Positions 1 through 51,517 of a stretch of 64,000 nucleotides of DNA are shown here, piece by piece (within the stretch, counting starts at the first letter, position 1; every line of letters begins with the position of its first letter). A program made the translations under genes and the position numbers. Under the pieces are notes generated by a model that was given only the letters and a program-made list of their open reading frames with translations, had not been told where the DNA came from and did not search any database. This stretch comes from Rhizobium sp. Q54 (GTDB lineage: Bacteria > Pseudomonadota > Alphaproteobacteria > UBA2966 > CAIVPW01). Where the stretch lies: positions 26,862 through 90,861 of the forward strand of contig CAMEYM010000007.1 of assembly GCA_945947575.1 (NCBI GenBank), written 5' to 3'.

Positions 1-1214
1 GGTGCGGATGCTGTGGTTAGCGCCAACCGCAGGCTCTCCGGCAGGTTCAGGAAGAACCGCCGGGCGAACAGCAGTTGGTGTTTCATGTATCCGTAGAAGA
101 CCTCGTCGGCTCCGACGCCGGCGATGCCGAACGTGCATCCCTGTGCAACGGCGACCGCGCCCATCTGCTCCGCCGCCCCGACGGTGATGTTGTCGCTCGG
201 CTGCCCGAACATCCCAAACTGGTACCTCGCCGGTTCGCGGTACTCGTTGTCGGCAGCGACGACGACGCTGTGCGGCAGTCCAAGGGCGGCGGCAACCCAA
301 CGCGATGCAGCCGCCTCATCGTGGGTGGCTCCGGTCGGAAAGCTTACGGTCAGGCAATCCGGCGTCTGGCCCAGGTCACGCGCCATCATGGCGGCGATCA
401 GCGACGAGTCGACGCCACCCGAAAGAAAGATGCACGACCGTACGTCACCAGCGAGCCGAGCGCGCAGGCTGTCCGCCAACGTCTCCTGGATGCGATCCAG
501 TTGCGATTCGGTCAGCGGATGGATCTTGCCACGACCCGGCTCCCCGCGCGGCGGGGTCCAGTAGCGTTGGCGCGAAACGATGCGGCCCCGCGCAACCTTG
601 AGAATGGTTCCGGGCGGAATACGGGTGATGTTCCGGTATGCGGTGTCAGGTGCGAGCACCGACCCGGTCGAGAGGAACGGAAGCAGCCAACGGTCATTGG
701 TCTCCGGGCCGAGGAGCTTGACGAGAGTCCGAAGCTCCGAGCTGACGTACAACCCGTCGGGGGTGTCCGCCAGGTAGAGCGACTTCTCACCGAACCGATC
801 GACGGCCAGCCACCCGACCTCGCCGTCCCAAAGAGCGAACGCAAACATGCCGTCGATGACATCGAGGGACGCCGGGCCGAAATGGCGCCATGCTTCGAGC
901 AGGACCTCCGTATCGCCCGTCGTCGTGAACCTGGCGCCGAGGCCCTCGAGCCGGGCACGCAGTTCGGGAAAGTTGTAGGCCTCGCCGTTGTACGAGATGA
1001 CGTGGCTGTCGCGCGCCAATGGCTGGTTGCTCGAGGCAGAGAGGTCGATGATCGAGAGCCGCCGGTGTCCGAGGTAGACGCCGGCGCGGCGATCCAGCCA
1101 CTCGCCGCCGTTATTCGGGCCGCGATGCGCGAGGCTCGCAGTTCCTTCGCGGCCAACCACGACATCCCTCTCTGTCAGGGGGCGGCGCAGGAACAACGCG
1201 AAGACACCACACAT
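1..1214 (-). CDS. asnB: Asparagine synthase-like glutamine amidotransferase (WbpS/AsnB type, glycan amidation); runs off the left edge
   Basis: Manual translation from ATG at 1214: MCGVFA (Ntn Cys), HRGP, GHRRLSIIDL, YNGE, DTEV, GMFAFALWD, DRFGEKSLY, LSGGVDSS, GADE. It is absent from the ORF track because the stop lies outside the window. Confidence 0.92.
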   Translation of the reverse strand, partial: MCGVFALFLRRPLTERDVVVGREGTASLAHRGPNNGGEWLDRRAGVYLGHRRLSIIDLSASSNQPLARDSHVISYNGEAYNFPELRARLEGLGARFTTTGDTEVLLEAWRHFGPASLDVIDGMFAFALWDGEVGWLAVDRFGEKSLYLADTPDGLYVSSELRTLVKLLGPETNDRWLLPFLSTGSVLAPDTAYRNITRIPPGTILKVARGRIVSRQRYWTPPRGEPGRGKIHPLTESQLDRIQETLADSLRARLAGDVRSCIFLSGGVDSSLIAAMMARDLGQTPDCLTVSFPTGATHDEAAASRWVAAALGLPHSVVVAADNEYREPARYQFGMFGQPSDNITVGAAEQMGAVAVAQGCTFGIAGVGADEVFYGYMKHQLLFARRFFLNLPESLRLALTTASA

Positions 1215-1245: not shown

Positions 1246-2115
1246 TTAGGCCGCTCCCGGCGAAACCCAGTCACTCACTGCCAGCCGGCCCGCGGCCGAA
1301 GTGCCCGCCGCAGCGAGGCCGGCGCGCGACGACACGAAGTAGTAGAAGCGGCGGCCGTGGAACCCGAGGTCGTAAGCCTCCACCAACTCATAGCCCGCGC
1401 CGAACTTGCCCTCGTTGAGTTCCTTGATTGCGCGCAGCTCGCCGGACAGCGACGAGAAGTAGTTCAGGTAGGTGTCGTCGAAATAGAAGACGCAGCCGTT
1501 CGGGACGATCGGCAGGATCCGGCGGAAGATGTCCACCGTCGAGGAGTAGTAGTCGCAGTCGACAATGACCAGGAATGGCGGGCGCTTGGCGATTTCGGCA
1601 ATGACGGTGTCGGTCAGGCTCTCGCTGAACAGGCCTTTGAACAGCGTAAAGTTCTGGAAGCCATGTTCCTGGAGGCGCTTACGCACGTCCTCTTCGTTGG
1701 CGGCGAAGCTACCGGTCGTCCAGTCCTGCTGCTTGACGCCAATGCCTTCGAAGACGAAGTCGGCCTTGTCGTTGCTCGCCGGCATGCCTTCGAACGTGTC
1801 GAAGCCGTAGTGCCAGACCTTGTCGGAGCCGTTGGCGACCTCGACGAAGTGCAGCAGCCGCTGACTGAGGGCGCCTGCCGAGGTGCCGAACTCCAGGATC
1901 GACGAGGGCCGATCGAGCTTAGGGACGCGTTTCATGATGACGGCGGCAAGCGTGTACTCGCGCTTGCCGAGCGGGGCCGCCTCACGGTTCCGGACCGGCC
2001 CGTGAATCTTGTACCAGATCTTCGTCTGCAGCTTTGCCGGAAGGAGGCGCAGGATCCATCGGCCGAGCAAGACCGACAGAACGACGCGTATCCAATAGAA
2101 TCGCAAATAGATCAA
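1246..2115 (-). CDS. TylF/MycF/NovP-family O-methyltransferase
   Basis: LEFGTSAG, GFDTFEGMP, KGLFSESL, VDCDYYSST and FDD motifs; TTG start with a purine-rich RBS. Confidence 0.8.
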   Translation of the reverse strand: MIYLRFYWIRVVLSVLLGRWILRLLPAKLQTKIWYKIHGPVRNREAAPLGKREYTLAAVIMKRVPKLDRPSSILEFGTSAGALSQRLLHFVEVANGSDKVWHYGFDTFEGMPASNDKADFVFEGIGVKQQDWTTGSFAANEEDVRKRLQEHGFQNFTLFKGLFSESLTDTVIAEIAKRPPFLVIVDCDYYSSTVDIFRRILPIVPNGCVFYFDDTYLNYFSSLSGELRAIKELNEGKFGAGYELVEAYDLGFHGRRFYYFVSSRAGLAAAGTSAAGRLAVSDWVSPGAA

Positions 2116-2165: not shown

Positions 2166-3056
2166 TCAGGCCGTGCGCCAACGGCGCGGATCGATGAGGG
2201 CCTCGTCGGGCGGCGGTTCGGGCAGGTCGAATTTTGGCGAGTTCGGCCCGGCGGTATCCCAGGCGTCCAGGACCTGCCTGAGTTCCTGCGTCGTCGTGAC
2301 GCCAACCAGCACGGTGTCGACGCCGCCGACGTTGCGCGCAAAGGACAGCGCGGCCGCAAGGGGCGACAGACCCGCGAACTCGCCCGCCTTGCGAAAGGCT
2401 TCCACATAGGGCCGAACGCCCAACAGATGGGCCGGCAACTCCTCGGGGCGCATCAACAGGGCGCCCTGCAGGAACACTGATCGAACGTGAACCGCCACTC
2501 CGATGGAGGCGAGTTTCGCGACGTGACCGCTGCGCACTAGACGCTGATCGAGTGCGCTCAAGGGCAGCTGGACGATGTCGGGTCGGAATCGGCGCAGCAC
2601 GGCGTCGATCTGATTGCCGTCATAGGCCGAGACGCCGATGGCAGAGACGCGTCCGGAAGCTCTGAGCGATTCCAGCGCGCCGACAAAGCGTTCGCCAGAC
2701 GGCTTCAGCAGGTCTGCAACGTGATGAATCAGGACTCCGAAGATCTTCGATTGTCCCAAGCGCGCGAGCGACGCGTCGAGGTCCCTGTGGATATTCTCCA
2801 CTTCCGCATCACCGATGCTGGCCGCGGCCACGCGGCGAGTCTTGGTGACCAGACGAAAGGTGTGCCGTGCCGGCAGGGAACTACCGATGACCGCTTCCGA
2901 ATCGCCGTACTCCGGCGCCGTGTCGATCACTGAGATGTTGCCGGCTGCAGCCGTTGCAAGCATCCGGGCGACGTCGGCCTGCGCCGGCTTGCCGACACGA
3001 TTGGAAACGCCGTAGTTGAGCCCAAACTGGACCGCGCCGAGACCAAGCGACGCCAC
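2166..3056 (-). CDS. Aldo/keto reductase
   Basis: LGLGAVQFG, IDTAPEYGDSE, VTK, LIHH, IGVSAY, SVFLQG motifs. Confidence 0.88.
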   Translation of the reverse strand: MASLGLGAVQFGLNYGVSNRVGKPAQADVARMLATAAAGNISVIDTAPEYGDSEAVIGSSLPARHTFRLVTKTRRVAAASIGDAEVENIHRDLDASLARLGQSKIFGVLIHHVADLLKPSGERFVGALESLRASGRVSAIGVSAYDGNQIDAVLRRFRPDIVQLPLSALDQRLVRSGHVAKLASIGVAVHVRSVFLQGALLMRPEELPAHLLGVRPYVEAFRKAGEFAGLSPLAAALSFARNVGGVDTVLVGVTTTQELRQVLDAWDTAGPNSPKFDLPEPPPDEALIDPRRWRTA

Positions 3057-3058
3057 GG

Positions 3059-3760
3059 TCAGGGCTCGCCGATCCTTCCGACGCGACGCACCGTCACGAA
3101 CGCTTCGGCTGCCTCACGGCCGCACTGGCCGCCGCGCCAGCGTGCCAGGGCCTCGATGCCTTGGGCCGAACGCGGATGCGGCCACTTGCGCAACTCGCCG
3201 CGATAGGCGCGCATTGCGGCCACCTTGGCGGTCAGGGCGTCTTCGAGGTCGAGGAATTCTGTCGGGATGAAGGGGGGCAGCGTGGCGGGCGCCCATTCGG
3301 TGGACGATGGGACTTCGCACGCAAGCACGACGCGATCGGGAACTCCCGGCAGAGGGCGCGCTGCGGTCGCGACGGCTTGGTGGGTGACGCGATGGTCGAC
3401 GTTCAAGTCGCCGCCGTGGTGGGTGTAAATGCGGGTCGCCGGAAAATCTGCGAGGAAGGCTTCGACGCGGGCCACCACCTTCAGGAGCGGAATCGAGTCC
3501 ATCGCGTTGTCGGGGAAGTCGCGTAACTCGACGCTGCGACCGCCCAAGATCGCGCAAGCTTCTTCCGCCTCGCGACGCAAGGCACGGATTGCCGCCGTGC
3601 TGGTCTTGCCGCGCGACGTTAGGCCGGTCGCCAGGATCAGGATGCGAACCTCGTCGCCCCGACGCGCATGCAGGCTGAGTGCGCCGCCACAGCCGAGCAC
3701 CTCGTCGTCTGGATGCGCGAAGATGGCGGCGACGCGCGCTAGCGCGCCGGCCGACGTCAT
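3059..3760 (-). CDS. PIG-L/LmbE-family N-deacetylase
   Basis: AHPDDEVLGCGG metal motif, DFPDN, HHGGDLNVDH, AEAF; start assigned to ATG 3760. Confidence 0.9.
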   Translation of the reverse strand: MTSAGALARVAAIFAHPDDEVLGCGGALSLHARRGDEVRILILATGLTSRGKTSTAAIRALRREAEEACAILGGRSVELRDFPDNAMDSIPLLKVVARVEAFLADFPATRIYTHHGGDLNVDHRVTHQAVATAARPLPGVPDRVVLACEVPSSTEWAPATLPPFIPTEFLDLEDALTAKVAAMRAYRGELRKWPHPRSAQGIEALARWRGGQCGREAAEAFVTVRRVGRIGEP

Positions 3761-3770
3761 GCGCGAGGGC

Positions 3771-4466
3771 TTAGGGTTTGTGGGCACAGACGATGAACTC
3801 GGTGATCTCGCTGTTGAAGTACTTGTGCGAGGTGAAGCCGATGTCGTCGATCACGAATCCTGCGTTCCGCAGCAACGCTGCCAGCTTCTGCCCGTCCGGC
3901 GGGCAGTACGTCGGCACGGGCTCTTCCTTGCCGCTCAGTCCGCGGAACTCGTAGGTGTCCTCGCCGATCACCTTGCAGTTGCGGGCGAAGTCGGCGTTCG
4001 GGCCGTTGATGTCGGCGATGATCTTGGCGCCCGGCTTGGCGACCCGGAAGAATTCGCGCAGCAGAGTCTCGACGCGTTCGCGGGAGGCAAGGAGCGACAG
4101 CACGCCCATGCACACGACGTAGTCGAAATGTGCATCGGGGAACGAAAGGCGCGTGGCGCTGACGTCCACCTGGCTCAGGCGCGCACGCTGCCTCAGGTCA
4201 GGACGCGCGTCGAGCTTGCGCTCGACCATCTTGACCGCGCTGGCCGACGCGTCGAGGCCCTCGACGGTGTAGCCGCGCTCCAAGAGGTGCAGGAGGTTCA
4301 CGCCGGCGCCGAACGCGTACTCAAGCGCCAGGCCGGGCTGGGCGCCGAAGAACCAGCGCTCCAGGCGCACCAGGTCGATGGACGGGTAACGCTTTTCGGC
4401 GATGCCGTCGGCGAATGCCTTGTCCCATTTGGCGGCGACGGCGGGATGGACGAGCGTCAAAGCCAT
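3771..4466 (-). CDS. Class I SAM-dependent methyltransferase
   Basis: LEYAFGAGVN motif I-like, GLDAS, FPDAHFDYV. Confidence 0.82.
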   Translation of the reverse strand: MALTLVHPAVAAKWDKAFADGIAEKRYPSIDLVRLERWFFGAQPGLALEYAFGAGVNLLHLLERGYTVEGLDASASAVKMVERKLDARPDLRQRARLSQVDVSATRLSFPDAHFDYVVCMGVLSLLASRERVETLLREFFRVAKPGAKIIADINGPNADFARNCKVIGEDTYEFRGLSGKEEPVPTYCPPDGQKLAALLRNAGFVIDDIGFTSHKYFNSEITEFIVCAHKP

Positions 4467-4482
4467 GGAATTCTGAAACCCC

Positions 4483-5445
4483 CTAGTATCCGCGCGCCTT
4501 GTCGACAACGTTGTAGAGCGGCTCGTTGCGGACGAACCTCTGAATGTTGGCGCGCATGAGCGTGGCGCTCCGCTCGCGGTTGTAGTCAGAAAGGCCTGCG
4601 ATATGCGGCGTGATGATGACGTTGTCCATCGACCGCAACGGATGATCCGCCGGCAATGGCTCCGGGTCGGTCACGTCGAGGCCCGCGCCGGCGATGGTCT
4701 TCGCCCGCAAAGCGGCAAGCAGCGCCTCGGTATCGGTATTCGCACCGCGCGATACGGAGACGTAGAGCGCCGCCCGCTTCATCGCGGCGAACTGCGGCGT
4801 GGCCATCATGCGCATGGAGCGCGGGGTGTTCGGCGCTGCCATGACGACGACGTCAGACGCAGCCAAGCCCTCGGAAAGCCGATCGAGTGGGATGAATCGC
4901 TCGATGGCACTCACCATCGGGACGTAGTCCTCGTCGGCCGCCAGCACCTTCATCCCGAATGCGCGCGCGCGTTCGGCGACGAGGAGGCCGATGCCGCCCA
5001 CTCCGATGACTAACATCGTCTTGCGATACAACTCGAGCGGCCGCGGCTGCGACGCCGATGCGTTGCGCAGCACGAGGTGGATGTTGCGCGCCAGTGACAG
5101 CAGAAGCGCCAGCGCATGGTCCGCGACTTCGGGTCCCTGAATGATCCGACCGTTGGTGAAGACGATGTCGCTCTCGACGAACTCCGGAATCATGAACTCT
5201 TCGCAGCCGGCGCCGCCGAGGTGAACCCAGCGTAGCGTGTCGCCCGCCAGGCTAAGGATGTCGGGACTGAAGAGTTTGCGCGGACAGTTCAACAGCCCAT
5301 GGATGTCGGGCAGCGCCGCCTGGATGGCCTCCAGGGTATCGGGACAATAGGCAAACTCCGCCCCGTCGATGCCGGCAGTGATCTTGCTTGCGTGCTCGGG
5401 CGGCATGCCCCGGGACGTTACGAACAAGATGCGCGGCTTCTTCAT
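4483..5445 (-). CDS. D-2-hydroxyacid dehydrogenase (NAD-dependent)
   Basis: IGVGGIG Rossmann motif, VSRG, LDVTDPEP, TPHIAG; start MKKPRI at 5445. Confidence 0.88.
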   Translation of the reverse strand: MKKPRILFVTSRGMPPEHASKITAGIDGAEFAYCPDTLEAIQAALPDIHGLLNCPRKLFSPDILSLAGDTLRWVHLGGAGCEEFMIPEFVESDIVFTNGRIIQGPEVADHALALLLSLARNIHLVLRNASASQPRPLELYRKTMLVIGVGGIGLLVAERARAFGMKVLAADEDYVPMVSAIERFIPLDRLSEGLAASDVVVMAAPNTPRSMRMMATPQFAAMKRAALYVSVSRGANTDTEALLAALRAKTIAGAGLDVTDPEPLPADHPLRSMDNVIITPHIAGLSDYNRERSATLMRANIQRFVRNEPLYNVVDKARGY

Positions 5446-6011
5446 CGATTGGCTTCCGTTGGTGCGTGAGGCGAGGAGGGGGATGACGGGGGGGCGAGGC
5501 GCGCCATCTGTAACACGTCGCAGAACGCTCCCTCGAACCAGGCATGGTCCTTGAGAATGGCGTCGTGGAAATACCCCGCCTTCTCGAAGCAGCGGCGGCT
5601 GGCCACGTTGGGCGCAAAGATTCCCGCGCTGAGCTTGTGGAGGCGGAGCGACGCGAAAGCGAAGTCGGTCACAAGCACGACTGCCGCGCTTGCGATTCCG
5701 CGGCCCCAGTGCGGCCTGCTGCCGACGATCAGCGCCACCTCGGCGCGAGCGTGCCGCCGACGGATGTGGGTCAGGCGGATATTGCCGACGTGCGTTCCAT
5801 CGAAATGAATGGCCCACAGTGCGCTATCGGGCGAAGTGACCGTGTTTTCGACATAGGCGCGCGCACTCTGCAGCGTCTGGCCGGCCGATACTTCCGTGAA
5901 GCGTGTGACCACGGGGTCATTGAGCCAGCCAACGTAGGCTTCGGTGACTTGCGCCGGCTCTAGCGGGGCCAGCCGCACCGGACCGTCACCATTGATTGTG
6001 GGAACGCGCAC
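5442..6011 (-). CDS. GNAT N-acetyltransferase (RimJ/PseH-like)
   Basis: HVGNIRL, WGRGIAS, NVASRRCFEKAGY; GTG start at 6011 assumed. Confidence 0.8.
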   Translation of the reverse strand: MRVPTINGDGPVRLAPLEPAQVTEAYVGWLNDPVVTRFTEVSAGQTLQSARAYVENTVTSPDSALWAIHFDGTHVGNIRLTHIRRRHARAEVALIVGSRPHWGRGIASAAVVLVTDFAFASLRLHKLSAGIFAPNVASRRCFEKAGYFHDAILKDHAWFEGAFCDVLQMARLAPPSSPSSPHAPTEANR

Positions 6012-6016
6012 GGAGG

Positions 6017-7324
6017 CTAGTTGGAGCGAACCTGGAACACGGGCTCGATCGGGTGTCCGCGCAGGAAGCGCGCCGGATCGGGAGACTGGATGGCATCGCG
6101 TACCACCGCGGCCGCGCGCTCCCAAGCGGATAGGGTTAGGCGCAGCACTTCGGGATCGTCGTGAGTCAGGGCGATGTTGATGACGCCGCTGCCGAGGACG
6201 CCGTTGGCGACAAGCTCCTGGCGGAGCACGCTCGAGACGATGCGATCCTGGACGCCGCCACCGGTCACCCGGATCACCGGATGCCAGGGCATGCCTTGAA
6301 CCACAATCCTATGCGCAACTGCGGCCCGCGCGAGAATGTCGTTGATCCCAGCGATCAGGCGCTCGCCGACGGCGTGGATGCGAGCGACGGCGTTGGTGCG
6401 CTCCAGCTTGTCGATGGTGGCGAGCGACGCCGCAAGGGACAGCGTTTCGCCACCAAACGTGCCCGAGAAGAAGATGTCCTCCATGCGCCGCATGATCGCG
6501 CCGCGGCCCACGACGGCCGCGATCGGCATGCCGTTGCCCATTGCCTTGCCGAAGGCGGCGAGGTCAGGAGTCACGCCGTAGTACCTCTGTGCGCCGCCGA
6601 GGTCGAGCCGGAAGCCGGTGACGATCTCGTCGAATACCAGTACGACTCCGTAGCGCTCGGTGAGGGACCGCAATCCCTTGAGGAACTCCGCCGAGCCCCC
6701 GAGGCCCCCGACCGGCTCTATGACGATGGCGGCGAAGTCGTTCCGGTTGTGCGCCAGAACGTCTTCAAATACCTGCAGGTCTCCGTAGGGGAGGGAGATC
6801 GATAAGTCGCGCACCGCGTTCGGCACGCCGAGGTGCCGTGTCGTGGTGCCAATGTACCAGTCGTGCCAGCCGTGATAGCCGCACACGATGACGCGGTCGC
6901 GGCCGGTGTGCGCTCGTGCGAGCCGCACCGCCGCCGACGTGGCGTCGGATCCATTCTTGCCGAAACGGACCATCTCGGCGCATGGGATGAGGCGCACCAA
7001 GCGCTCGGCAACTTGCACCTCGAGTTCGGTGGCGAGCGAAAAGATGATGCCTTTTTCCAGCTGCGCCCGAATCGCAGCGTCGACGTCCGGATCGCAATAG
7101 CCGAGGACGATGGGCATCAGGCCGAGCACGTAGTCGATGTACTCGTTGCCGTCGACGTCCCAGACTCGGCATCCCTTGCCACGGTCGAGAAACAGGGGCG
7201 AAGCGCCGCGCACGAAGTTCATCGCCGACTTCGAGAATGTCTGTGAGGCGAGAGGAATCGTCTTGAGCGCGCGCTCATAGAGTGCGTTGGATCGGGCAAA
7301 CGTGGGCGTGCGTGCGTTTGTCAC
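6017..7324 (-). CDS. Class III PLP aminotransferase (GSA-aminomutase/KdnA-like)
   Basis: DVDGNEYIDY, KNGSDATSAAVRLAR, FDEIVTGFR, PDLAAFGKAMGNG, SGTFGG. Confidence 0.9.
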   Translation of the reverse strand: MTNARTPTFARSNALYERALKTIPLASQTFSKSAMNFVRGASPLFLDRGKGCRVWDVDGNEYIDYVLGLMPIVLGYCDPDVDAAIRAQLEKGIIFSLATELEVQVAERLVRLIPCAEMVRFGKNGSDATSAAVRLARAHTGRDRVIVCGYHGWHDWYIGTTTRHLGVPNAVRDLSISLPYGDLQVFEDVLAHNRNDFAAIVIEPVGGLGGSAEFLKGLRSLTERYGVVLVFDEIVTGFRLDLGGAQRYYGVTPDLAAFGKAMGNGMPIAAVVGRGAIMRRMEDIFFSGTFGGETLSLAASLATIDKLERTNAVARIHAVGERLIAGINDILARAAVAHRIVVQGMPWHPVIRVTGGGVQDRIVSSVLRQELVANGVLGSGVINIALTHDDPEVLRLTLSAWERAAAVVRDAIQSPDPARFLRGHPIEPVFQVRSN

Positions 7325-7328
7325 GAGA

Positions 7329-8132
7329 CTACTTGCGTTTGCGGAACCGCATCAGCTTGAGCGGCGCGAAGTCTCCTACCGCGGGCAGGCGGCACGACAG
7401 CTTGTTGATCTCGGCGAGATAGTCGGGATCCTTGTCCGCCGGCGTGACGTAGGCGTTGAACACGCGGCTGATCAAATAGTAGAGGCTGGCGAATCGGTCC
7501 GTCTCGACGTGCTCGAGCTGCTCCGGTAGCCGCGCCAGCACATCGCTCTCGCGCATGTACAGGTTGTGCCACTTGTAAGAGATCGCCGGCAGGCCGACGG
7601 ACTGGCGCAACTCGTTGATGCGCTCCTGACCCTCCTCGAAGTGCTCGATCATCACGATCTCGCCGCCGGGCGGCAGGATCGCGGCGAGATTAGCGAGGGC
7701 CCGCGCTTGGTCATCGCGTGAAGGCAGGTTGATCAAGCACCGCACGGTGAAGATCTGGGGGAACATACCCAGGTGGCGCAAGTCCTCCAGGACGCTGGCG
7801 ACGGCGAACTTCAGCGGGACTCGAGGAGAACGCTCCTTAGCGAGACCGTTGGCGACGGCGATCATCCGATCCGAATAGTCCACGCCCGTTAGCGGTGCTT
7901 CGAACCACTCGGTCATCTGCAGCAAGTTGACGCCGTTGCCACAGCCGACCTCTAGCGCCGGAACCTTGCGATCTAGGTGCTGCTGCAAAGCCGCGACCTC
8001 CAGCTCCTTGGCGAGTGGGTCGTACATCGTTGCCTTGAGGTCGGCGCCGTAGCGTTCGGCCTGGCCGTTCCAGAAGGCGCGGATCTCGTCGACGGAGTGG
8101 CCTGTTTGCATGCGGGTGGCTGCTTCGGTCAT
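7329..8132 (-). CDS. Class I SAM-dependent methyltransferase
   Basis: LEVGCGNG, GVDYS; ATG 8132 overlaps the upstream stop (ATGA). Confidence 0.82.
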   Translation of the reverse strand: MTEAATRMQTGHSVDEIRAFWNGQAERYGADLKATMYDPLAKELEVAALQQHLDRKVPALEVGCGNGVNLLQMTEWFEAPLTGVDYSDRMIAVANGLAKERSPRVPLKFAVASVLEDLRHLGMFPQIFTVRCLINLPSRDDQARALANLAAILPPGGEIVMIEHFEEGQERINELRQSVGLPAISYKWHNLYMRESDVLARLPEQLEHVETDRFASLYYLISRVFNAYVTPADKDPDYLAEINKLSCRLPAVGDFAPLKLMRFRKRK

Positions 8133-8875
8133 GGACGGGCCTGTATGGCTGAGGAAGGGGCTGGCTGCGTGATTCCCAGCAGGTGCGGCGCGCGCATGGC
8201 TGCCGATAGCGCCTGCATCCAGGTGTACCCGGCGGGCAGCAGCGCGATCAATTCGCGGATGCGGGCGAGGTCGGCAGGCGTGTCCAGCGTCCAGCGGACG
8301 AAGCCAAAGTCGGCGGGCGCCAGCAGATTGCCAACGCGGAAGCCGCCCGCGCCATATTGCGGATGCGATCCGCGAATGAAGGGCGTTACATGCTCGCGCA
8401 GGAATGGATGACGCGCTTCCTCGTCGGCGCGGCGCAAGGCGTCGGCGCTGAATACTTCGCAGTCGAGGCCGTCCGGGAAGCTGCGTACATTGGCGTTCGA
8501 GGTGTAGTCGTAGGAGTCGGTGTCGAACAGCGCGAACGTCTGGTCGATCAGCGCAGGATCGATCATCGGGCAATCCGCGGTAAGGCGCACGACGACGCGT
8601 GCGCCGGTGCGGTCTACAACGCCGACGAACCGGCCGAGGACATCGTGCTCGTCGCCGCGAAACGTCTCGACGCCCAGGCGCTCGCAGAGCGCGACCACTG
8701 GATCGTCGGTCGCATTGGCGGTCGTAGCGACGACGACGTGGTCGATGGACGTCGCCTTGCGCACTCGGGCCAGCATGTGCTCCAGGGCGGGCGACCCGCC
8801 GATGTCGACCAGCACCTTGCCAGGCAGGCGCGTCGACGTCATGCGCGCCTGGATGACAGCCACGACGCGCTGCAT
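8129..8875 (-). CDS. SpsF/PseF-like cytidylyltransferase (CTP_transf_3)
   Basis: IQARMTSTRLPGKVL, RGDEHDVLGRF, VRLTADCP, REHVT, WTLDTPAD. Confidence 0.88.
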   Translation of the reverse strand: MQRVVAVIQARMTSTRLPGKVLVDIGGSPALEHMLARVRKATSIDHVVVATTANATDDPVVALCERLGVETFRGDEHDVLGRFVGVVDRTGARVVVRLTADCPMIDPALIDQTFALFDTDSYDYTSNANVRSFPDGLDCEVFSADALRRADEEARHPFLREHVTPFIRGSHPQYGAGGFRVGNLLAPADFGFVRWTLDTPADLARIRELIALLPAGYTWMQALSAAMRAPHLLGITQPAPSSAIQARP

Positions 8876-9843
8876 CAGCGGGCGCGCAGCCGGACGTCCG
8901 CGCTGGCGAGGATCGGCCGCATGCGGTCCGCCAGTTCCAAGGCGATGCGACGCTGGCCCTCGGCGGTGCTGGCGCCGATGTGAGGCGTCACCAAAACGCG
9001 CGGATGGCCGAGGAGGGGGTGCGCATAGGACGTACCGGAGGTCTTGTCGAACGGCGGCTCTGGATACAGGACGTCGACGGCCAGGCGCGCGACGCGGCCG
9101 TCGTTCAGTGCCTCCAGCATGGCGGCGTCATCGACCACGGCGCCGCGACACGTGTTGATCAGCAGCAGGCCTGGCTTCGCCGTGACCAACAGCGGGCGCG
9201 AGACCAATGCTCGCGTTCCCTCTGTCAGCGGCACGTGCAGGGTGATCAGGTCGGCCTGCTTGAATACGTCGTTCAACGAAGCCAGGATGCGCCCGCCCAT
9301 GCGTTCGAACGCCGCCGCGTCGCGCGGCGCCGGATCGTGTCCGAGCAGCTTGCAGCCAAAGCTCTGCAGGCGCTTGGCGACCGCCATACCGGCGCGTCCC
9401 AGGCCGACGATGCCGACTGTCATCTCGGCGATCTCTCGGCCTTCGAACAACTGGCGGCGGAAGTCGCCACGTCTCACGGCGGCTGCTGCATCGACGACGT
9501 TGCGCGCCAGCACGACGACGAGGCCGACAGTGAACTCCGCCACCGCCACCGTGTTCTGGTCCGGCGTCGTAATGAGGGCGATCCGCTGGGCCTCCACCGC
9601 ACGCAGATCGATGTTGTCGGTACCCACCCCGGCGCGGCCAATGCACCGCAGGCGCTGGGCTACCCGAAGGAGGTCGGTATCGACGGACGTCACGCTCTTG
9701 ATTACCGCGGCGTCGAAGCCCGGAATCGTGTCGAGCAGCTCGGCGCGGGAAAGGCCCAGATGGACGTCGACCTCGGCATATGCGCGCATGGACTCGACAC
9801 CGTCAGCATGGATCGATTCGAGGATGACGATGCGCGGAGTCAT
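8875..9843 (-). CDS. D-3-phosphoglycerate dehydrogenase-like 2-hydroxyacid dehydrogenase
   Basis: RAGVGTDNID, GIVGLGRAG, LHVPLT, INTCRG, DVLYPEP, TPHIGAST. Confidence 0.87.
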   Translation of the reverse strand: MTPRIVILESIHADGVESMRAYAEVDVHLGLSRAELLDTIPGFDAAVIKSVTSVDTDLLRVAQRLRCIGRAGVGTDNIDLRAVEAQRIALITTPDQNTVAVAEFTVGLVVVLARNVVDAAAAVRRGDFRRQLFEGREIAEMTVGIVGLGRAGMAVAKRLQSFGCKLLGHDPAPRDAAAFERMGGRILASLNDVFKQADLITLHVPLTEGTRALVSRPLLVTAKPGLLLINTCRGAVVDDAAMLEALNDGRVARLAVDVLYPEPPFDKTSGTSYAHPLLGHPRVLVTPHIGASTAEGQRRIALELADRMRPILASADVRLRAR

Positions 9844-10889
9844 CGCGAGGACGGTTGCAAGGCACGATATGGAACGACGGTGCGCCCGGCGGGAAACGGC
9901 ACTTCGGCGACGGCCTCGCCGCGGGCGAGGGCGACGATGTCGTCGTAGAGCGGTACGCCGGCGCAGATCGTCACGGTGACGCTGCCGCTCGGACGTGGAT
10001 TGATCTCGACGACGTACGGCATGCCGGCCGCGTCGAACATCACGTCGCAGTCGTACAGCCAGCTCAGATTGAAATGCTCGATCAGGCTCCGGCCGAGTTG
10101 CAGGAGTGCCGGACTGTTCACGACAGTATGCCCTTCGTTCGGCTGCTGCGAGTTCAGCCGTCTGCGTGCGACGACGCGAACGGGCTGGCCGTGCCAGCCC
10201 AGCATGTCGATGTCGTGCACGGGCTCTTCGAGACGCTGCATCACGATCGCTGGCAACGAAGACTCGCTGTGCGCCAGCAGGTGTTCGCGGTAGTAGGTGA
10301 CGCCGCAGTGGATCTCCCGCGCCCCCGGCAAAGGGGGCGCAACACCCTCGATATCCTTTTGGATAACCACAGCGCCGCGGCCACCGCGTCCGCCCGATGG
10401 CTTCACCACAGCCTCGCCACGCGCCTGCAGCATCTTGTCGACCGCCACGGTCAGCTGGGCGAGGGTGGTGACCTCGGTCCACTCTGGAACGGCAAGCCCG
10501 GCCCGGGCGATTGCTGCGTGCGTTGCCGCCTTAGAGGAGAACACCCGAATGGTCGCCGCGTCGGTGCACGCCAGCAGGCGGCCGCCCTTCTCGAGTGCCG
10601 CCCGGCCAGCGGACAGTGCGATCGCTTCCTCGTCCGACGAAGGCAGGACGATCTGCACGCCCTCCCGCTCGGCCACCGCGCGAACGGCGTCGACGTAGCC
10701 GGCTTCGGTGCCGCGCGGAACGACATGAAATGCATCGCAGAAGTGCCGTCCCACCGCCGACGGACTGGCATCGACGCCGACGGTTCGGATGCGGTAGCGC
10801 GTCGAGTTGCGCATGTACTGCAACGCCTGCGGCGCAAGCTCGCCGCCGACGCACGTCATCAACAGCGTGGCTTCAGGCTTCGAGGACAT
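9840..10889 (-). CDS. ATP-grasp domain protein (probable amide ligase)
   Basis: PSSDEE, VVKPSGGRGGRG, MQRL, EINPRPSGS. Confidence 0.85.
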   Translation of the reverse strand: MSSKPEATLLMTCVGGELAPQALQYMRNSTRYRIRTVGVDASPSAVGRHFCDAFHVVPRGTEAGYVDAVRAVAEREGVQIVLPSSDEEAIALSAGRAALEKGGRLLACTDAATIRVFSSKAATHAAIARAGLAVPEWTEVTTLAQLTVAVDKMLQARGEAVVKPSGGRGGRGAVVIQKDIEGVAPPLPGAREIHCGVTYYREHLLAHSESSLPAIVMQRLEEPVHDIDMLGWHGQPVRVVARRRLNSQQPNEGHTVVNSPALLQLGRSLIEHFNLSWLYDCDVMFDAAGMPYVVEINPRPSGSVTVTICAGVPLYDDIVALARGEAVAEVPFPAGRTVVPYRALQPSSR

Positions 10890-11925
10890 GCACGGGGACC
10901 GGGTCGTCGCATCGCAAGGCAAGGGGCGCGCGGCGACCGAGCACCTTGCCCCAATCGCGCGGCGCCAGACCGGACATGCCGGGCAGCGGACGCTTCAGGG
11001 CCAGGTTGCTCTCCTCGAAGGTTTCGCCGGCGGCAATGTCGCGCCCGGCGACGATGATCCGTCGGAAGCGTGGTGCCTGGCCGCGCTCTTGCTGCGTCAG
11101 CGTCTTGGCGTAGCTACCAAGCACGACGTGCGCATCGCGGACTCCGCGAACCAACTCCGCCATCCCCGCCTGATCCAGGGAGATGTGATGGTCGAAGCCG
11201 GGCCGCTTGGTGTCGAGGGTGAAGTGCTTCTCGATCATGCAGGCCCCGGCCGCGACGGCAAGCGCCGCTGCCGACGTGCCTACGGAATGGTCCGAGAATC
11301 CCACTGGAGCGCGGTAGCGCGCTTCCATCCAGCGCATTGCGCCGAGGTTGAGGTACTCCCGCGCCGTGGGGTACAGCGAGGTGCATTGGAACAGGCCCAG
11401 CTCCATTGCGCCGGCTTCCCGCGCCGCGGCCACTGCCTCGTCGATCTCGGCAGAATCGGCCATTCCGGTGGACATCAGTATGGTGCGCCCGGTGCGCGCC
11501 GCATGCTGCAGGGCGGGCACGTTCGTCAGGAGGCCGGACGAGATCTTGTGAGCCGCCGGTTCGAGGCGTTCGATCCAATCGATCGTCGGCGCGTCGCCAG
11601 CGGTAGTGAAGGCCTCCATCCCCAGGAAGCGCGCGAAGTCGAACATGGCCGCGGTGTCCTCGCGGCTCAGCACGGCGCGGCTGAACAGAAGGTAGCTCTC
11701 GGACCCACGCATATAGTTCTGGTCGGGATCCATCGTCTGCAGTTTGATCGCATCCGCGCCCGCGCGTGCGGCGGCCTCGATCATGGCCGCGCAGACAGAC
11801 GCGTCGCCTTCGTGATTGATGCCGATCTCGGCGATGACGGCTACAGGCTGGCCGACGCCAATCCGGCGGCGCCCGAAGCGGATTGCGGCCGCACTGCGCA
11901 AGAGATCAGAGGGCGACGATTGCAT
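10873..11925 (-). CDS. NeuB-family nonulosonate synthase (PseI/SpsE-like) with SAF domain
   Basis: IAEIGINHEG, DAIKLQT, KISSG, STGM, CTSLYPT, GFSDH, IEKHFTLD, RRIIVAGRDI. Confidence 0.92.
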   Translation of the reverse strand: MQSSPSDLLRSAAAIRFGRRRIGVGQPVAVIAEIGINHEGDASVCAAMIEAAARAGADAIKLQTMDPDQNYMRGSESYLLFSRAVLSREDTAAMFDFARFLGMEAFTTAGDAPTIDWIERLEPAAHKISSGLLTNVPALQHAARTGRTILMSTGMADSAEIDEAVAAAREAGAMELGLFQCTSLYPTAREYLNLGAMRWMEARYRAPVGFSDHSVGTSAAALAVAAGACMIEKHFTLDTKRPGFDHHISLDQAGMAELVRGVRDAHVVLGSYAKTLTQQERGQAPRFRRIIVAGRDIAAGETFEESNLALKRPLPGMSGLAPRDWGKVLGRRAPLALRCDDPVPVHVLEA

Positions 11926-13726
11926 CCGCGGCTCTCTTGCCCGACCGGCCGTCGACGTGCCCGAAGTAGTGCGCCACCACCTGCGCGCGGCGTGCCGCCT
12001 TGTCGGCCCATCGCCGACGAATCTCGTTTAGGGGAAGCATCAGGAGGGTACGCAATGCCTCATGGAACCCCGGCTGCGCGCGATCGAAGACGAAGAAGGC
12101 CTCGTCGAAGGCGAGCCGCGCATTCGCAAACAACGGCAAGTCGCGGGGATGATCGAGGAATATGAAGGGCCTGCCGGAGACGGCGCCCCAGGCGATGCTG
12201 CTGGTCGCGCGGGAGGAAAGGACGATGTCCGCATCCGGGATCAGGAATGAAACGTCGTCACGGCCGCCATATACCTCGACGTTCTTGTGTCGAGCGGCGG
12301 CCACCAGGATCGGGTCAGGGTCGCAGTAGCGCACCGCGGGGTACGGTTTGAAGACCACGCGGAACGGCACGACACCAAGCACTTGTTCCACCAGCGCGAC
12401 GTCGTTGGCCGCCGCCTCGAGGTCGCTCAGGCCGCGCGAGCCGATCATCTGGCTCTCATGGCCAGCATACAGGGTCGAGGAGATCACCAGTAGGGTCGGC
12501 GCCGTGGCACGCGAGGGACGATAGGTTGCACACCGCGAGAACTCGGCCGGCATGCCGACGGCCACGCACTTGGCGGAGTTGAGCGGGGACCGCTCAGACA
12601 CTTCCGCAGCCGCCGGACTGTAGGTGAAGAAGTAGTCCGCGGTGTTGCCCTCGAAGTACGCTTCGATGCGCTGATTGTTCTGCGAGATTTCGCGCGCGGT
12701 TCCGTGCTGGAAACCGATCACCGGCAAGCCCACGCTGCGGCATACGTGAAAGAGGGCCGGAGTCTCGGGCAGCATCAGCATGTTGGTGAGCACGCCGCGC
12801 AGCGACCGGCGGGGCCGCTGCGCGAGGGCCGTGCGCCACCAATGCAGTGCGCCGGTGTAGCGGTCGGCGGCCTCTAGGAGGTCCTCCAGGATCACAGCGC
12901 GGACGACGCTCCAGACGAACTTCGGTACGAGCGGTTGCAGGTGGTGCTCGATCACCGTGGTTATCAGGCGCCCCAGGCGCTCGCGCTCCGGATCGGCCGC
13001 CATTGTCTGAGATTGACTCAGCCAGGCCAGTCCGTAGCCGCGCATGGCTAGGCTGGTCACGGCCTCGCGCAACAGGGAATTCTCGCGCAGGATCAAGTAG
13101 GTGCCGCGCGGCGAGCGGAAGGAGCGATCGCGCCAGAAGCCGGAAGTCGCCTGGAAACCGAGTTTGGCGCCGCGACCGAGGCGCTGGCGATCCCAGAACC
13201 GGCTCGTCTCCTGTTGCGGGCCGGCAGCTGCGGCGACCGCTGCGGGAACCTCAAACGTCTGCACGTGGGCGACCTGGCGCAACAGGCGCTCCCAATGCGG
13301 GCGCTGGGCGACCGCGTACGGCAGGCCTTCCTTCGCAGGCAGAAGCACGGCCACGCGCCGGCCGGCATCGCCGGCGCGCAGGGTCATCGCGTTGAGCACC
13401 AAGCCGCCGACCCGCAGCACCCTCTGCGCCAGCACGATGCCGTGGCCCTTGATGGCCGTGTCCAGATGGCACCCTGCGTAGAGATCGAGCGAGCACTGGT
13501 GGATCGCTTCGCCCAGGGTATCGTGCAGGATCACTCCGGCGGGCTCGGCCGGACTCGCGCTGCCGGCCAACAGGAGCGCGGGAGCCACGCTGCGTAGCTC
13601 CGCGCTGCTCGGCAGACCGGCACGACGGGCCGCGTCCAACACCTCGCGGCTGTCGACGAAGGCAAGCTCGACATCCTGCAAGCCGAGGGCCGGCGCCGGG
13701 TTTCGGATGGCGCGTGCTGTCTTCAT
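11906..13726 (-). CDS. Uncharacterised 606-aa protein with a GT-B-like C-terminus; candidate nonulosonate transferase
   Basis: Long ORF overlap-coupled to both neighbours; GFQHG, VFKPYP, DIVLSSRATSS motifs. Confidence 0.6.
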   Translation of the reverse strand: MKTARAIRNPAPALGLQDVELAFVDSREVLDAARRAGLPSSAELRSVAPALLLAGSASPAEPAGVILHDTLGEAIHQCSLDLYAGCHLDTAIKGHGIVLAQRVLRVGGLVLNAMTLRAGDAGRRVAVLLPAKEGLPYAVAQRPHWERLLRQVAHVQTFEVPAAVAAAAGPQQETSRFWDRQRLGRGAKLGFQATSGFWRDRSFRSPRGTYLILRENSLLREAVTSLAMRGYGLAWLSQSQTMAADPERERLGRLITTVIEHHLQPLVPKFVWSVVRAVILEDLLEAADRYTGALHWWRTALAQRPRRSLRGVLTNMLMLPETPALFHVCRSVGLPVIGFQHGTAREISQNNQRIEAYFEGNTADYFFTYSPAAAEVSERSPLNSAKCVAVGMPAEFSRCATYRPSRATAPTLLVISSTLYAGHESQMIGSRGLSDLEAAANDVALVEQVLGVVPFRVVFKPYPAVRYCDPDPILVAAARHKNVEVYGGRDDVSFLIPDADIVLSSRATSSIAWGAVSGRPFIFLDHPRDLPLFANARLAFDEAFFVFDRAQPGFHEALRTLLMLPLNEIRRRWADKAARRAQVVAHYFGHVDGRSGKRAADAIVAL

Positions 13727-14733
13727 TCCCGGGATGCAGCAGCGAGCAAGGCGGACGCTGCGCGCTGTGCGCCGCGTCCGTCCACTGCGGCGCGCGCCTT
13801 GGCAGCCATTGTGGTTCGGTGTTGCGGGTCGCGCGCCAGGCGCACGACTGCAGCGGCAATGTTGCTGGGTGTGGCGTCGGCCAGATCCCCGAGCAGCAGC
13901 GTGGCCTCAGCCCGCTCCGCCTCGCGGGCGTTACTCCATTGGTTGTCAGCCGACACGATGGTAATCGTCGGTGTCGCGCACGCCATCCGCTCGAGCAGAC
14001 CGACGCCACCGTTGCCGATCGCCAGATCGGTCTTGAGCAGTAGCGGGCGCAAGTTGGTGAGGGTCGTCACGACTTCGGCGCTACCAGGGAAGGACTTGGC
14101 CAGCTCGGCGCTGACGCGGGCGAGATGAGGCGCGTGCGACCCCAGGACTACCGTAACTCGCGGCGCGACCCCGGCGGCGCGGGCCTGCAGGAGGCCGGCG
14201 ATGGCAGTGGACGTCCCGTCGGCCGAATCGCGCAACCCAAACGCCACGACGACGTGCCGCAGCTCTGTCGTTGGCTCGCGAAGCGGTGCGTCCGCATACT
14301 GGGGTGCGAGGAGGGCGTACGAGATTCCGGCAACGCCCGCCCCATATGCCACACTTGGCGCAGAGGTACGCAGAACGAAGTCAGCGTGGTCGGGAGCGGC
14401 GTCCAGATCGTCGATGACCGCGAGGTAGGCCGCGGCCTGTCGCCAGCGTCGCCTGTCCGCCGCGGTGAAGGTGTAGCCATCCAGGACGCACCCGGCCCAC
14501 GGTCCGGTTTCCGCACCGCTGTCGAACCGTGCGCCAAAGCCAAGCTGCGACAGTTCGCGTTGCCACTCGAACGACCCTGGATCGAGGATGAACTCCACCC
14601 GCACCGAGCGGCGGAGCTCCACGGCGAGGGCCTGGCAACGACGCACGTGTCCGCCACCGACTTCCGCGCGCGAGGCGACGCGGATCGCCCAGGGCAGCGA
14701 CTGCGATTGGAGGGGCACCGGGACCGGGACCAT
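13723..14733 (-). CDS. pseG: PseG-like nucleotide-sugar hydrolase (GT28-like fold)
   Basis: VGGGHVRRCQALA, VLDGY, IDDL, GGVG...ERMACATP, ADNQ. Confidence 0.8.
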   Translation of the reverse strand: MVPVPVPLQSQSLPWAIRVASRAEVGGGHVRRCQALAVELRRSVRVEFILDPGSFEWQRELSQLGFGARFDSGAETGPWAGCVLDGYTFTAADRRRWRQAAAYLAVIDDLDAAPDHADFVLRTSAPSVAYGAGVAGISYALLAPQYADAPLREPTTELRHVVVAFGLRDSADGTSTAIAGLLQARAAGVAPRVTVVLGSHAPHLARVSAELAKSFPGSAEVVTTLTNLRPLLLKTDLAIGNGGVGLLERMACATPTITIVSADNQWSNAREAERAEATLLLGDLADATPSNIAAAVVRLARDPQHRTTMAAKARAAVDGRGAQRAASALLAAASRE

Positions 14734-30448: not shown

Positions 30449-31143
30449 CGGTTCGTATGCGTCACCTCGCGCTCGGCGAGGATGGCCCGGGCGAACAAGA
30501 GGTCGAGGTCGGTGTCGATGTCGATGGAGCGCTCCGGCGGCATCATGTAGGCCCGCGTCTCATCGGCAATGAAACGCCGCGTCTTCGCCAGCCAATTGGG
30601 CCGGGCCACGTACACTGCACCGTTGGGCGTGACGACCACGCTCGAGTCCTGACGGCGGGCCGAGTCTCCTGGCATCACCTTGCGGAGCGATCCCCTCGCG
30701 TCCACGGAATAGAACCATTCGAGGGGCTTCGACACCCGGGTCACCGAAACGCAGGCGGGTACATCCTCCGCTATGCAAGTGCGCACGCAGGCGTCGATAT
30801 CGGCACCGGTGCGGAACGGCGAAGTGGCTTGGAGGAGCACGATGTAGTCGTACGGCTCGCTGAGAGCCTCAAGTGCGTGGAACAGGACGTCGTAGATAGA
30901 GGCGGTATCTGTCGCGAGCGTGGCGGGACGCTGAAAAGGCACCTCACAGCCGCAGGATCCTGCCACCGAGGCGATCTCATGGTCGTCCGTCGACAGGATG
31001 ACGCGCGAGAGGGTCGTGGCTTCCGCGGCGGCCGCTACGGACCAGACCACCAGCGGCCGCCCGCCCAGGTCGAGCACGTTCTTCCTCGGCAGGCCCTTCG
31101 AGCCGCCGCGAGCGGCGATGACCGCCAGGGTTCGCGGTTTCAC
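30445..31143 (-). CDS. neuA: Acylneuraminate cytidylyltransferase (NeuA/LegF-like)
   Basis: ARGGSKGLPRKN, STDD, LQATSPFR, PNGAVY, SIDIDT; GTG start at 31143. Confidence 0.92.
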   Translation of the reverse strand: MKPRTLAVIAARGGSKGLPRKNVLDLGGRPLVVWSVAAAAEATTLSRVILSTDDHEIASVAGSCGCEVPFQRPATLATDTASIYDVLFHALEALSEPYDYIVLLQATSPFRTGADIDACVRTCIAEDVPACVSVTRVSKPLEWFYSVDARGSLRKVMPGDSARRQDSSVVVTPNGAVYVARPNWLAKTRRFIADETRAYMMPPERSIDIDTDLDLLFARAILAEREVTHTNR

Positions 31144-31354
31144 AAGAAGACGCCGAGGAGTTAAGAGTATCTGGGCTGGAGGCGGCCCGCAGGGCTTGCC
31201 CACGCTGCCGCAGCGCGGGTGACAGGCACCCGGCGCAAGCTCGGACCCTCTCAGGTCGCCAGGCCCGCTGTCAACCCTGCGCAATCCAGGAGTCGGGCGG
31301 TTTCCTTGCGCGGACCGATGGCGTCCCGCTAGTGTCACCCCCGGGGCCCCTCCT

Positions 31355-50026: not shown

Positions 50027-50058
50027 AGGATTACTTCTATACGATAACCTTACCGATT

Positions 50059-50070: not shown

Positions 50071-50126
50071 GCGGTCGGGGTGGAGCGTCATTGCGGCCGT
50101 AGACCACTTCAAACCTGCGAGGACCG

Positions 50127-51514: not shown

Positions 51515-51517
51515 CCC

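Follow-up and report, generated by a model that had tools for sequence, protein, structure and literature searches.

A class III aminotransferase in a pseudaminic acid-type operon of a lake alphaproteobacterium: a candidate cassette for adding an amine to nonulosonic acids

The window analysed here, a 64,000-nucleotide (nt) stretch of contig CAMEYM010000007.1 (65% GC), comes from a lake alphaproteobacterium with a 2.49-Mb genome that is 95.7% complete. Positions 3-31488 are taken up by a single long array of minus-strand genes for two nonulosonic acids. Within it, positions 2166-8875 encode an aldo/keto reductase (AKR), a SpsF/COG1861-type cytidylyltransferase (SpsF) and a class III, pyridoxal phosphate (PLP)-dependent aminotransferase resembling glutamate-1-semialdehyde (GSA) aminomutase (GSAM), referred to as AT3. 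With moderate confidence, we read this region as the tailoring and activation half of a pseudaminic acid (Pse)-type operon carrying an added-amine cassette. AKR, SpsF and AT3 very probably form one functional unit acting on a nonulosonate. The prediction that the outcome is an added amine is evenly poised, and C8 is put forward tentatively as its position. As an add-on to a known pathway, the cassette is itself known but uncharacterised.

Conservation of the three genes was examined in 58 AT3 loci with enough flanking sequence for neighbourhood analysis. These loci were picked by AT3 similarity and are mutually related, so the counts are descriptive only. SpsF lay near AT3 in 55 of the 58 loci and NeuB within 10 kb in 55, while PseB or a DegT enzyme was near AT3 in only about 25. 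An AKR, a short-chain dehydrogenase/reductase (SDR) or a fused Gfo/Idh/MocA protein, representing three unrelated folds, accompanied AT3 in at least 45. In proteobacteria and acidobacteria the commonest order was PseB-PseC-AKR-SpsF-AT3-PseG(-GNAT)-NeuB. At least 599 AT3 relatives (35-70% identity) occurred in the genome contig collection, and the window AT3 was 40-55% identical to the cassette aminotransferases.

The cassette genes were also frequently fused. SpsF and AT3 formed a single protein in 12 of the 58 loci, and in locus L009 Gfo/Idh/MocA, SpsF and AT3 made up one 1028-aa protein. Of the 120 best longer relatives that the window SpsF has in a large protein collection, 112 carried PF00202 and are SpsF-AT3 fusions; other longer relatives carried Gfo, GNAT, PseG or ATP-grasp domains. 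All eight longer relatives of the window AKR were AKR+CTP_transf_3 fusions (32-43% identical). One AKR-SpsF fusion adjoined AT3, in the order PseB-PseC-NeuB-AT3-[AKR-SpsF] (L157), and another AKR+CTP_transf_3 fusion lay in the order SDR-ATP-grasp-NeuB-[SpsF-AKR]. The window SpsF shared 43% identity, along its whole length, with the cytidylyltransferase domain of one such AKR-SpsF fusion, whereas only 49 residues could be aligned with the NeuA/PseF-type enzyme of the window; its best Protein Data Bank (PDB) match was 6oew, a 'cytidylyltransferase'. The window AKR was 25-41% identical to AKRs beside AT3 in other loci. The recurrence of an aminotransferase-SpsF-oxidoreductase set, often fused, across many phyla indicates that the gene grouping did not arise by chance.

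In the window, AKR, SpsF and the class III aminotransferase were co-operonic with pseB/pseC/pseG/neuB-type genes. Every element named in an earlier note on this DNA was found on the minus strand by Pfam matches: the AKR, a hydroxyacid dehydrogenase, a GNAT, the class III aminotransferase and SpsF. Genes outside that list are those for PIG-L, two SAM methyltransferases, the ATP-grasp ligase and the second, PGDH-like dehydrogenase. Genes of the Pse block lay on the minus strand throughout, with overlaps or gaps of a few bases between neighbours. Transcription from 8875 to 2166 would read SpsF, methyltransferase, AT3, GNAT (starting 5 nt past the AT3 stop), 2-hydroxyacid dehydrogenase, methyltransferase, PIG-L and AKR. 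PseC, a PseG-like protein, a 606-aa orphan, a divergent NeuB, an ATP-grasp ligase and a dehydrogenase like phosphoglycerate dehydrogenase (PGDH) are encoded upstream of SpsF; downstream of AKR are a TylF-like methyltransferase and then an AsnB-like amidotransferase. The features are as follows, with bit scores of the family models and, for equivalog models, their cut-offs (SAM, S-adenosylmethionine; CMP, cytidine monophosphate; UDP, uridine diphosphate).

3..1214, truncated at the window edge, minus strand: asparagine synthase-like glutamine amidotransferase (PF13537, PF00733), tailoring, with amide formation proposed
1246..2115, minus strand: TylF-like O-methyltransferase, tailoring (PF05711, 35 bits)
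2166..3056, minus strand: AKR, the proposed cassette oxidoreductase, which would make or handle a keto-nonulosonate (PF00248, 104 bits)
3059..3787, minus strand: PIG-L family N-deacetylase, proposed to remove N-acetyl ahead of re-acylation (PF02585, 86 bits)
3771..4508, minus strand: class I SAM-dependent methyltransferase, lineage-specific tailoring (PF08241/PF13649)
4483..~5442, start approximate, minus strand: D-isomer-specific 2-hydroxyacid dehydrogenase (PF02826, 155.6 bits for the trimmed 319-aa protein)
5442..6011, minus strand: GNAT (Acetyltransf_3) N-acetyltransferase (PF13302, 80.4 bits)
6017..7324, minus strand: AT3, class III (GSAM-like) PLP aminotransferase (PF00202, 194 bits)
7329..8126, minus strand: class I SAM-dependent methyltransferase between SpsF and AT3 (PF13649, 53 bits for the trimmed 265-aa protein)
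8129..8875, minus strand: SpsF/COG1861-type cytidylyltransferase, proposed to CMP-activate the modified nonulosonate (PF02348, 104 bits)
8875..~9840, start approximate, minus strand: PGDH-like D-2-hydroxyacid dehydrogenase (PF02826, 168 bits; PF00389, 93 bits)
9840..10922, minus strand: ATP-grasp ligase, a proposed amide-forming acyl ligase (PF15632, 63.6 bits; PF21360, 41.7 bits)
10873..11925, minus strand: divergent NeuB-family nonulosonate synthase (PF03102, 220 bits)
11906..13726, minus strand: 606-aa protein with no Pfam match, between the PseG-like and NeuB genes
13723..14733, minus strand: PseG-like UDP-sugar hydrolase (TIGR03590, 116 bits, cut-off 153.55; PF04101)
14737..15900, minus strand: PseC, DegT-type aminotransferase supplying the C7 amine (TIGR03588, 426.7 bits, cut-off 423.5)
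25176..26378: LegC, DegT-type (TIGR04181, 528 bits, cut-off 420)
28134..29189, minus strand: PseB, inverting UDP-GlcNAc 4,6-dehydratase, first Pse step (TIGR03589, 491 bits, cut-off 407.75)
30445..31200: second cytidylyltransferase (PseF model, 136 bits, cut-off 205.7)

Two over-long open reading frames (ORFs), 4483-5817 and 8875-10482, hide genes that lie in another frame, those for the GNAT and the ATP-grasp ligase. In its 5′ part the long PGDH-like ORF is devoid of domains and runs over the ATP-grasp gene. Mechanical ORF calling in high-GC DNA gave both dehydrogenases N-terminal 'extensions' that are artefacts.

The PseB and PseC equivalogs both exceeded their cut-offs, and a separate legionaminic acid (Leg) set was found at 17-26.4 kb, comprising LegB, LegC, NeuC and NeuB with PtmE-like and amidino genes. 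The presence of two DegT enzymes, PseC and LegC, both over the TIGR cut-offs, was thus confirmed, and these would already account for the usual amines. In having PseB and PseC equivalogs with PseG-like and NeuB-family genes, the window resembles the canonical CMP-pseudaminic acid pathway (PseB, C, H, G, I, F). It differs in that the synthase fell below the PseI cut-off, the cytidylyltransferase is SpsF instead of the PseF type, and some ten extra tailoring genes are present. The Pse-block synthase missed both the PseI (245 bits, cut-off 340.25) and NeuB (270 bits, cut-off 400) models, while the Leg-block NeuB passed the latter with 459 bits. The PseG, PseI and PseF equivalog cut-offs were not reached by the corresponding proteins, and SpsF gave no PseF-model match at E ≤ 1e-3.

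The only tested relative of the cassette is the EpaA/EpaB pair of Acinetobacter baumannii prophages, in which EpaA (CTP_transf_3+AKR) and the SDR EpaB convert Pse5Ac7Ac to 8-epi-Pse5Ac7Ac (PMC12053666). The coupling of a CTP_transf_3 cytidylyltransferase to an AKR, here acting on pseudaminic acid, is the arrangement common to the eight longer relatives of the window AKR. In the window, by contrast, AKR and SpsF are separate genes, and their partner is a PLP aminotransferase rather than EpaB. No adh_short_C2-type (EpaB-like) SDR was present among the ORFs scanned in 1-31.5 kb. A search of a phage collection for EpaA, using the window SpsF, gave weak N-terminal matches only.

From the gene identities, the operon and the conservation of the cassette, we infer the substrate, the position of the amine, the redox direction and each tailoring step as follows. 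PseB, PseC, an N-acyltransferase step, the PseG-like hydrolase and the NeuB-like synthase would build a 5,7-diamino nonulosonate. AKR, working as a dehydrogenase, would oxidise a free secondary hydroxyl to a ketone, with C8 favoured, and AT3 would transaminate this ketone to an amine. SpsF would then CMP-activate the product or, alternatively, would supply the CMP-sugar on which AKR and AT3 act. Remodelling of N-acyl groups may additionally involve the GNAT, PIG-L, the ATP-grasp ligase, the two 2-hydroxyacid dehydrogenases, three methyltransferases and the AsnB-like amidotransferase. A Pse-type sugar has free hydroxyls at C4 and C8 only. For this reason, and because AT3 is accompanied by an oxidoreductase belonging to any of three folds and EpaA/EpaB acts at C8 through redox chemistry, oxidation is tentatively placed at C8. 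Since the partner is a PLP aminotransferase and not an SDR, an amine would be expected rather than an epimer. An oxidoreductase working with AT3 to add an extra amine to a nonulosonate, as the earlier note had proposed, appears to be the best fit to the Gfo/Idh/MocA-SpsF-AT3, SpsF-AT3 and AKR-SpsF fusions and to the action of EpaA/EpaB at C8. Class III enzymes that aminate oxidised sugars are a precedent for the role suggested for AT3, and two class III C-6′ aminotransferases, 7lm0 and 7lld, were among its PDB matches.

The AKR-PseF(SpsF-type)-AT3 insert has been drawn, with no function given, in the group I polar-flagellin glycosylation islands of Aeromonas (PMC7874193) and in the lipopolysaccharide (LPS) loci of Legionella pneumophila serogroups (Sg) 6 and 12 (PMC3694923), and a SpsF-AKR fusion occurs in a Vibrio Pse cluster (PMC7371886). 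In the Aeromonas and Legionella loci, as in the window, the three families lie inside a pseB/pseC/pseG/pseI operon. The window AT3 was 48-50% identical to the AT3s of loci with the same order as the Aeromonas group I type (L012, L014, L019 and L022), where a PIG-L deacetylase and methyltransferases are likewise optional extras. The window differs from this type in that its trio is dispersed among tailoring genes and it has no PseG-GNAT fusion.

A 5,7,8-triamino nonulosonate is present in the O-antigen of Tenacibaculum maritimum (PMC3210612), and of its genes 'nothing is known' (PMC9796276). No Tenacibaculum was among the matches listed from a profile scan for the cassette or from a scan with a low-GC codon pattern. 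It is conceivable, albeit speculative, that AKR-SpsF serves as a general platform for making and activating an 8-keto nonulosonate, and that the partner decides the product: the SDR EpaB would give the 8-epimer and AT3 the 8-amino sugar. AT3 would then supply the gene that is missing for T. maritimum-type 5,7,8-triamino nonulosonates. With such a platform in the window, the ATP-grasp ligase would join the new amine, or N5 after deacetylation by PIG-L, through an amide bond to a methylated hydroxy acid produced by the two dehydrogenases.

Aeromonas hydrophila AH-1 offers a comparison with a sugar of measured mass. This strain belongs to subgroup IA and has the minimal island pseB-pseC-AKR-pseF-AT3-pseG-pseI (PMC7874193, Supplementary Table 1); in subgroup IA only AKR and AT3 are added to the pse genes (PMC7874193). 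AH-1 flagellin carries a single Pse-like sugar of 403 Da, and some of its fragments differ by one m/z unit from those of acetylated Pse (PMC4691044). Relative to a calculated residue mass of 316 Da for Pse5Ac7Ac, the excess is 87 Da. By the nitrogen rule, the odd nominal mass implies an odd number of nitrogens, which fits a third nitrogen in the sugar.

Several points weigh against an added amine, beginning with this sugar: an amidino group or an aminoacyl ester may also explain the 403 Da, and the AH-1 authors proposed a nitrogen-free formula (PMC4691044). In a literature search, no product structure from a cassette-bearing strain and no characterised member of the AT3 family were found. Nor is the cassette contiguous in the window, where a methyltransferase gene separates SpsF from AT3, and AT3 is kept apart from AKR by genes for the GNAT, a dehydrogenase, a methyltransferase and PIG-L. 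AKRs mostly run as reductases; if this one does so, the cassette is left with no obvious oxidant. The acetyltransferase genes belong with these points. As the GNAT at 5442-6011 is the only one in the Pse block, it may carry out the PseH step. In the 23 loci that have PseB and PseC as well as AT3, one GNAT was found in 13, two in 5 and none in 5; with a second GNAT in only 5 of the 23, a third N-acetylation is not a constant feature. The proposal that cassette loci always carry an extra N-acetyltransferase was rejected on these counts.

The window GNAT belongs to a group of stand-alone GNATs of about 180-200 aa, found in 10 of the 58 AT3 loci (31-35% identical). Its best PDB matches were SpeG/RimL-like, and no PseH structure was among them. 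It may be either the PseH equivalent or the acylase of a new amine. PIG-L homologues (33-46% identical) occurred in 7-8 of the 58 loci. For the methyltransferase at 3771-4508 no homologue was found in these loci, and for that at 7329-8126 there was one, in a Leptospirales AT3 locus. A TylF-like methyltransferase was also present near the SpsF-AT3 fusion in L024. The PGDH-like dehydrogenase scored 283 bits on TIGR01327, under the cut-off of 454. Together, PIG-L, the ATP-grasp ligase and the hydroxyacid dehydrogenases suggest the replacement of an acetyl by a hydroxyacyl group, which is possibly methylated. In a separate protein, P0003, a SpsF-type cytidylyltransferase, an ATP-grasp domain and a GNAT are fused in 754 aa, which ties the ATP-grasp step to the same pathway.

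This tailoring set could also be read the other way, with AT3 acting on a side-chain precursor. Together with the 2-hydroxyacid dehydrogenases it would interconvert 2-hydroxy, 2-oxo and 2-amino acids, following the logic of the serine pathway, and the ATP-grasp ligase or GNAT would attach the resulting acid as an unusual N-acyl group. We consider this unlikely. Two D-2-hydroxyacid dehydrogenases, one of them PGDH-like, and the ATP-grasp ligase are indeed encoded in the same operon, and by our own arithmetic the 87-Da excess of the AH-1 sugar also fits an added aminoacyl unit (PMC4691044). However, the minimal cassette of Aeromonas subgroup IA (PMC7874193) and most loci have neither a hydroxyacid dehydrogenase nor an ATP-grasp ligase, and the fusion of AT3 to a sugar-activating enzyme and to sugar-type oxidoreductases is hard to square with free-acid metabolism.

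Comparison with close relatives separated a stable backbone from variable decoration. The backbone orf606-NeuB-ATP-grasp-SpsF...AT3-PIG-L-AKR...AsnB was common to three related alphaproteobacteria, G007, G014 and G025, whose AT3s were 69%, 62% and 62% identical to that of the window. The 606-aa orphan was kept beside NeuB (48%, 37% and 38% identity, in the same order), as was the ATP-grasp ligase (48%, 35% and 26%), and the AsnB-like amidotransferase was kept downstream of AKR in G007 (55%) and G014 (48%). In G007 and G014, PIG-L directly follows AT3, in the order AT3-PIG-L-AKR, at the point where the window has the GNAT, dehydrogenase and methyltransferase genes. The slots between backbone genes differed among the three relatives; those of the closest relative, G007 (L153, 6433-9880 and 12777-14870), held an epimerase-type SDR, a metallophosphoesterase, an ATP-grasp-methyltransferase fusion, a sulfotransferase and a GT4 glycosyltransferase. 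The decoration gene set thus appears to be modular. AT3 turned up in none of the 4 same-genus genomes and in 4 of 9 genomes of the family, an occurrence typical of a variable surface-glycan island.

That the cassette brings about epimerisation only, with no third amine, is distinctly improbable. AKR-SpsF would then make and activate an 8-epi or 4-epi nonulosonate, and AT3 would be a PLP epimerase or racemase, or an accessory protein. L. pneumophila serogroups other than Sg1 have been reported to make 4-epi-legionaminic acid, and class III epimerases and racemases were among the PDB matches of AT3 (9au3, isoleucine 2-epimerase). The cassette is carried by non-Sg1 L. pneumophila loci (PMC3694923), and EpaA, with the same CTP_transf_3+AKR make-up, yields 8-epi-Pse (PMC12053666). 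EpaA, however, requires a second redox enzyme in EpaB, and the corresponding slot of the cassette holds an aminotransferase with an intact transaminase core.
We also know of no PLP route for epimerising a carbinol carbon.

It is very improbable that AT3 is an alternative early aminotransferase, replacing or doubling PseC on the UDP-4-keto sugar or making an amino-sugar precursor. The finding that 33 of the 58 loci have no DegT enzyme within 10 kb would accommodate such a role, but PseC exceeded its equivalog cut-off in the same operon of the window and is also present in the canonical Aeromonas-type loci.

A further question about AT3 was whether it is a true HemL, the family of its best named matches. 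On the hemL model TIGR00713 it scored 275.7 bits (cut-off 527.3) and was the top hemL-like match of the entire genome, whereas true HemLs of other Pseudomonadota scored 568-649 bits; its identity to proteobacterial HemLs was 33-34%. Its best NCBIfam model, PRK06209 'GSA aminomutase', gave 368 bits without reaching the cut-off of 486. Glutamyl-tRNA reductase (GluTR) was not found in the 95.7%-complete genome (best match 34 bits, cut-off 209), and 5-aminolaevulinate (ALA) synthase was present (652 bits, cut-off 338). ALA is thus made by the C4 route, with no need of HemL. In a quick-search tree, with support from the Shimodaira-Hasegawa-like approximate likelihood ratio test (SH-aLRT) and no bootstrap, 12 HemLs formed one clade (SH-aLRT 100) and AT3 fell inside a separate 90-row family clade (SH-aLRT 99).

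Alignment to the solved GSAMs 5i92 and 2cfb showed that AT3 retains the PLP lysine and aspartate. The lid region is shortened by two deletions (9 residues), and the N-terminal 'NSPVRAF' stretch of HemL is replaced. We take the roles of the latter as a substrate-binding motif and of the former as an active-site lid loop from the GSAM literature. Alignment to the PDB HemLs ended after residue ~330, leaving the C-terminal third unaligned. HemL shares the fold and PLP-binding core with AT3; unlike AT3, it has a full lid loop, the N-terminal substrate motif, a score over the family cut-off, its own clade and a C5-pathway context. The earlier note had named a true HemL as the outcome that would undo its proposal; model score, pathway context, motifs and tree all went against HemL, which was rejected as the identity of AT3. 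AT3 is, by all these sequence measures, separate from HemL.

The same note had cited Shewanella KdnA as a class III aminotransferase, which proved to be wrong. KdnA is DegT-type: its structure, PDB 5k8b, was matched by the window's DegT-type PseC (E 8e-22) and was absent from the 60 listed of 90 AT3 PDB matches at E ≤ 1e-20. Homology of AT3 to KdnA was accordingly rejected. The Shewanella KdnB/KdnA pair, which gives 8-amino-Kdo (Kdo standing for 3-deoxy-D-manno-octulosonic acid), follows the same proposed logic, in which an ulosonic acid hydroxyl is oxidised, transaminated and CMP-activated. It differs in using a DegT-type rather than a class III enzyme, and Kdo rather than a nonulosonate as substrate, so that the parallel appears to be one of chemistry and not of family. 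KdnB is an iron alcohol dehydrogenase, and none of this kind was found among the window ORFs scanned.

The gene waaA does lie in the window, as had been said, at ~60.4-61.7 kb. It is on the plus strand, ~52 kb from AT3, and phage-derived genes at 48141-54899 (integrase, Rad52-like recombinase, large terminase and ParB-DNA methylase) stand between the glycan island and waaA/ugd/pgm. Kdo as a substrate thus found no support, and a link to waaA was rejected on distance and the intervening prophage genes; the constant neighbours of AT3 are NeuB and Pse genes. That AT3 is a true HemL, or a Kdo-aminating enzyme like KdnA/KdnB serving a waaA-dependent LPS core, would be favoured by GSA aminomutases being its best named PDB and NCBIfam matches and by waaA inside the window, but given the hemL score, the heme pathway genes, the tree, the DegT nature of KdnA, the lack of an iron alcohol dehydrogenase among the ORFs scanned and the distance to waaA, its probability is negligible and it is refuted as far as sequence can tell.

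Further members of the AT3 family were seen in other settings. A derived clade of 43 sequences (L055, L070 and 41 others), mostly from Bacteroidota and Ignavibacteriota, was without PseB and PseC. AT3 and SpsF were accompanied there by an SDR, a KdsC-like phosphatase of the HAD family, a short NeuB lacking the SAF domain, a transketolase split in two, a protein resembling fatty-acid hydroxylases and one of 353 aa that no Pfam family matched. This setting looks like a distinct aminated ulosonic acid pathway on a sugar phosphate. The AT3 motif YHGWHDWY, written in low-GC codons, matched many single-cell genomes of SAR11 (Pelagibacteraceae), Prochlorococcus and Synechococcus, and also Leptospira, Methanobrevibacter and Promethearchaeota (loci L171-L249); the family seems to be very widespread in plankton and archaea.

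A GSAM-like aminotransferase 37% identical to AT3 was found on the Shinella sumterensis plasmid CP132317.1 (L142) and on pNGR234b of S. fredii NGR234 (L141). Its neighbours were an SDR, DUF4910, RfbC, a methyltransferase, a glucose-1-phosphate cytidylyltransferase and PIG-L, while NeuB and SpsF were absent; this is a second context, predicted to involve a cytidylyl-linked sugar, for the wider AT3 family. The Pse structure of the Sinorhizobium K-antigen is known. As a natural test this antigen was rejected, since the megaplasmid homologue (37%) lies in a different, cytidine diphosphate (CDP)-hexose context that lacks NeuB and SpsF and is uninformative on the cassette.

As coats of flagella, capsules and LPS, nonulosonic acids influence how the immune system and phages recognise bacteria. 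If a third amine is indeed added by the cassette, a common class of surface sugar would have been overlooked, and genes could be assigned to the 8-amino sugar of the T. maritimum type. Many genomes now label this family 'glutamate-1-semialdehyde aminomutase', and it would also gain its correct name. Should AKR-SpsF be the general platform outlined above, the producers of triamino nonulosonates would be a great number of bacteria, among them SAR11, Leptospira, Legionella and Aeromonas, and some archaea.

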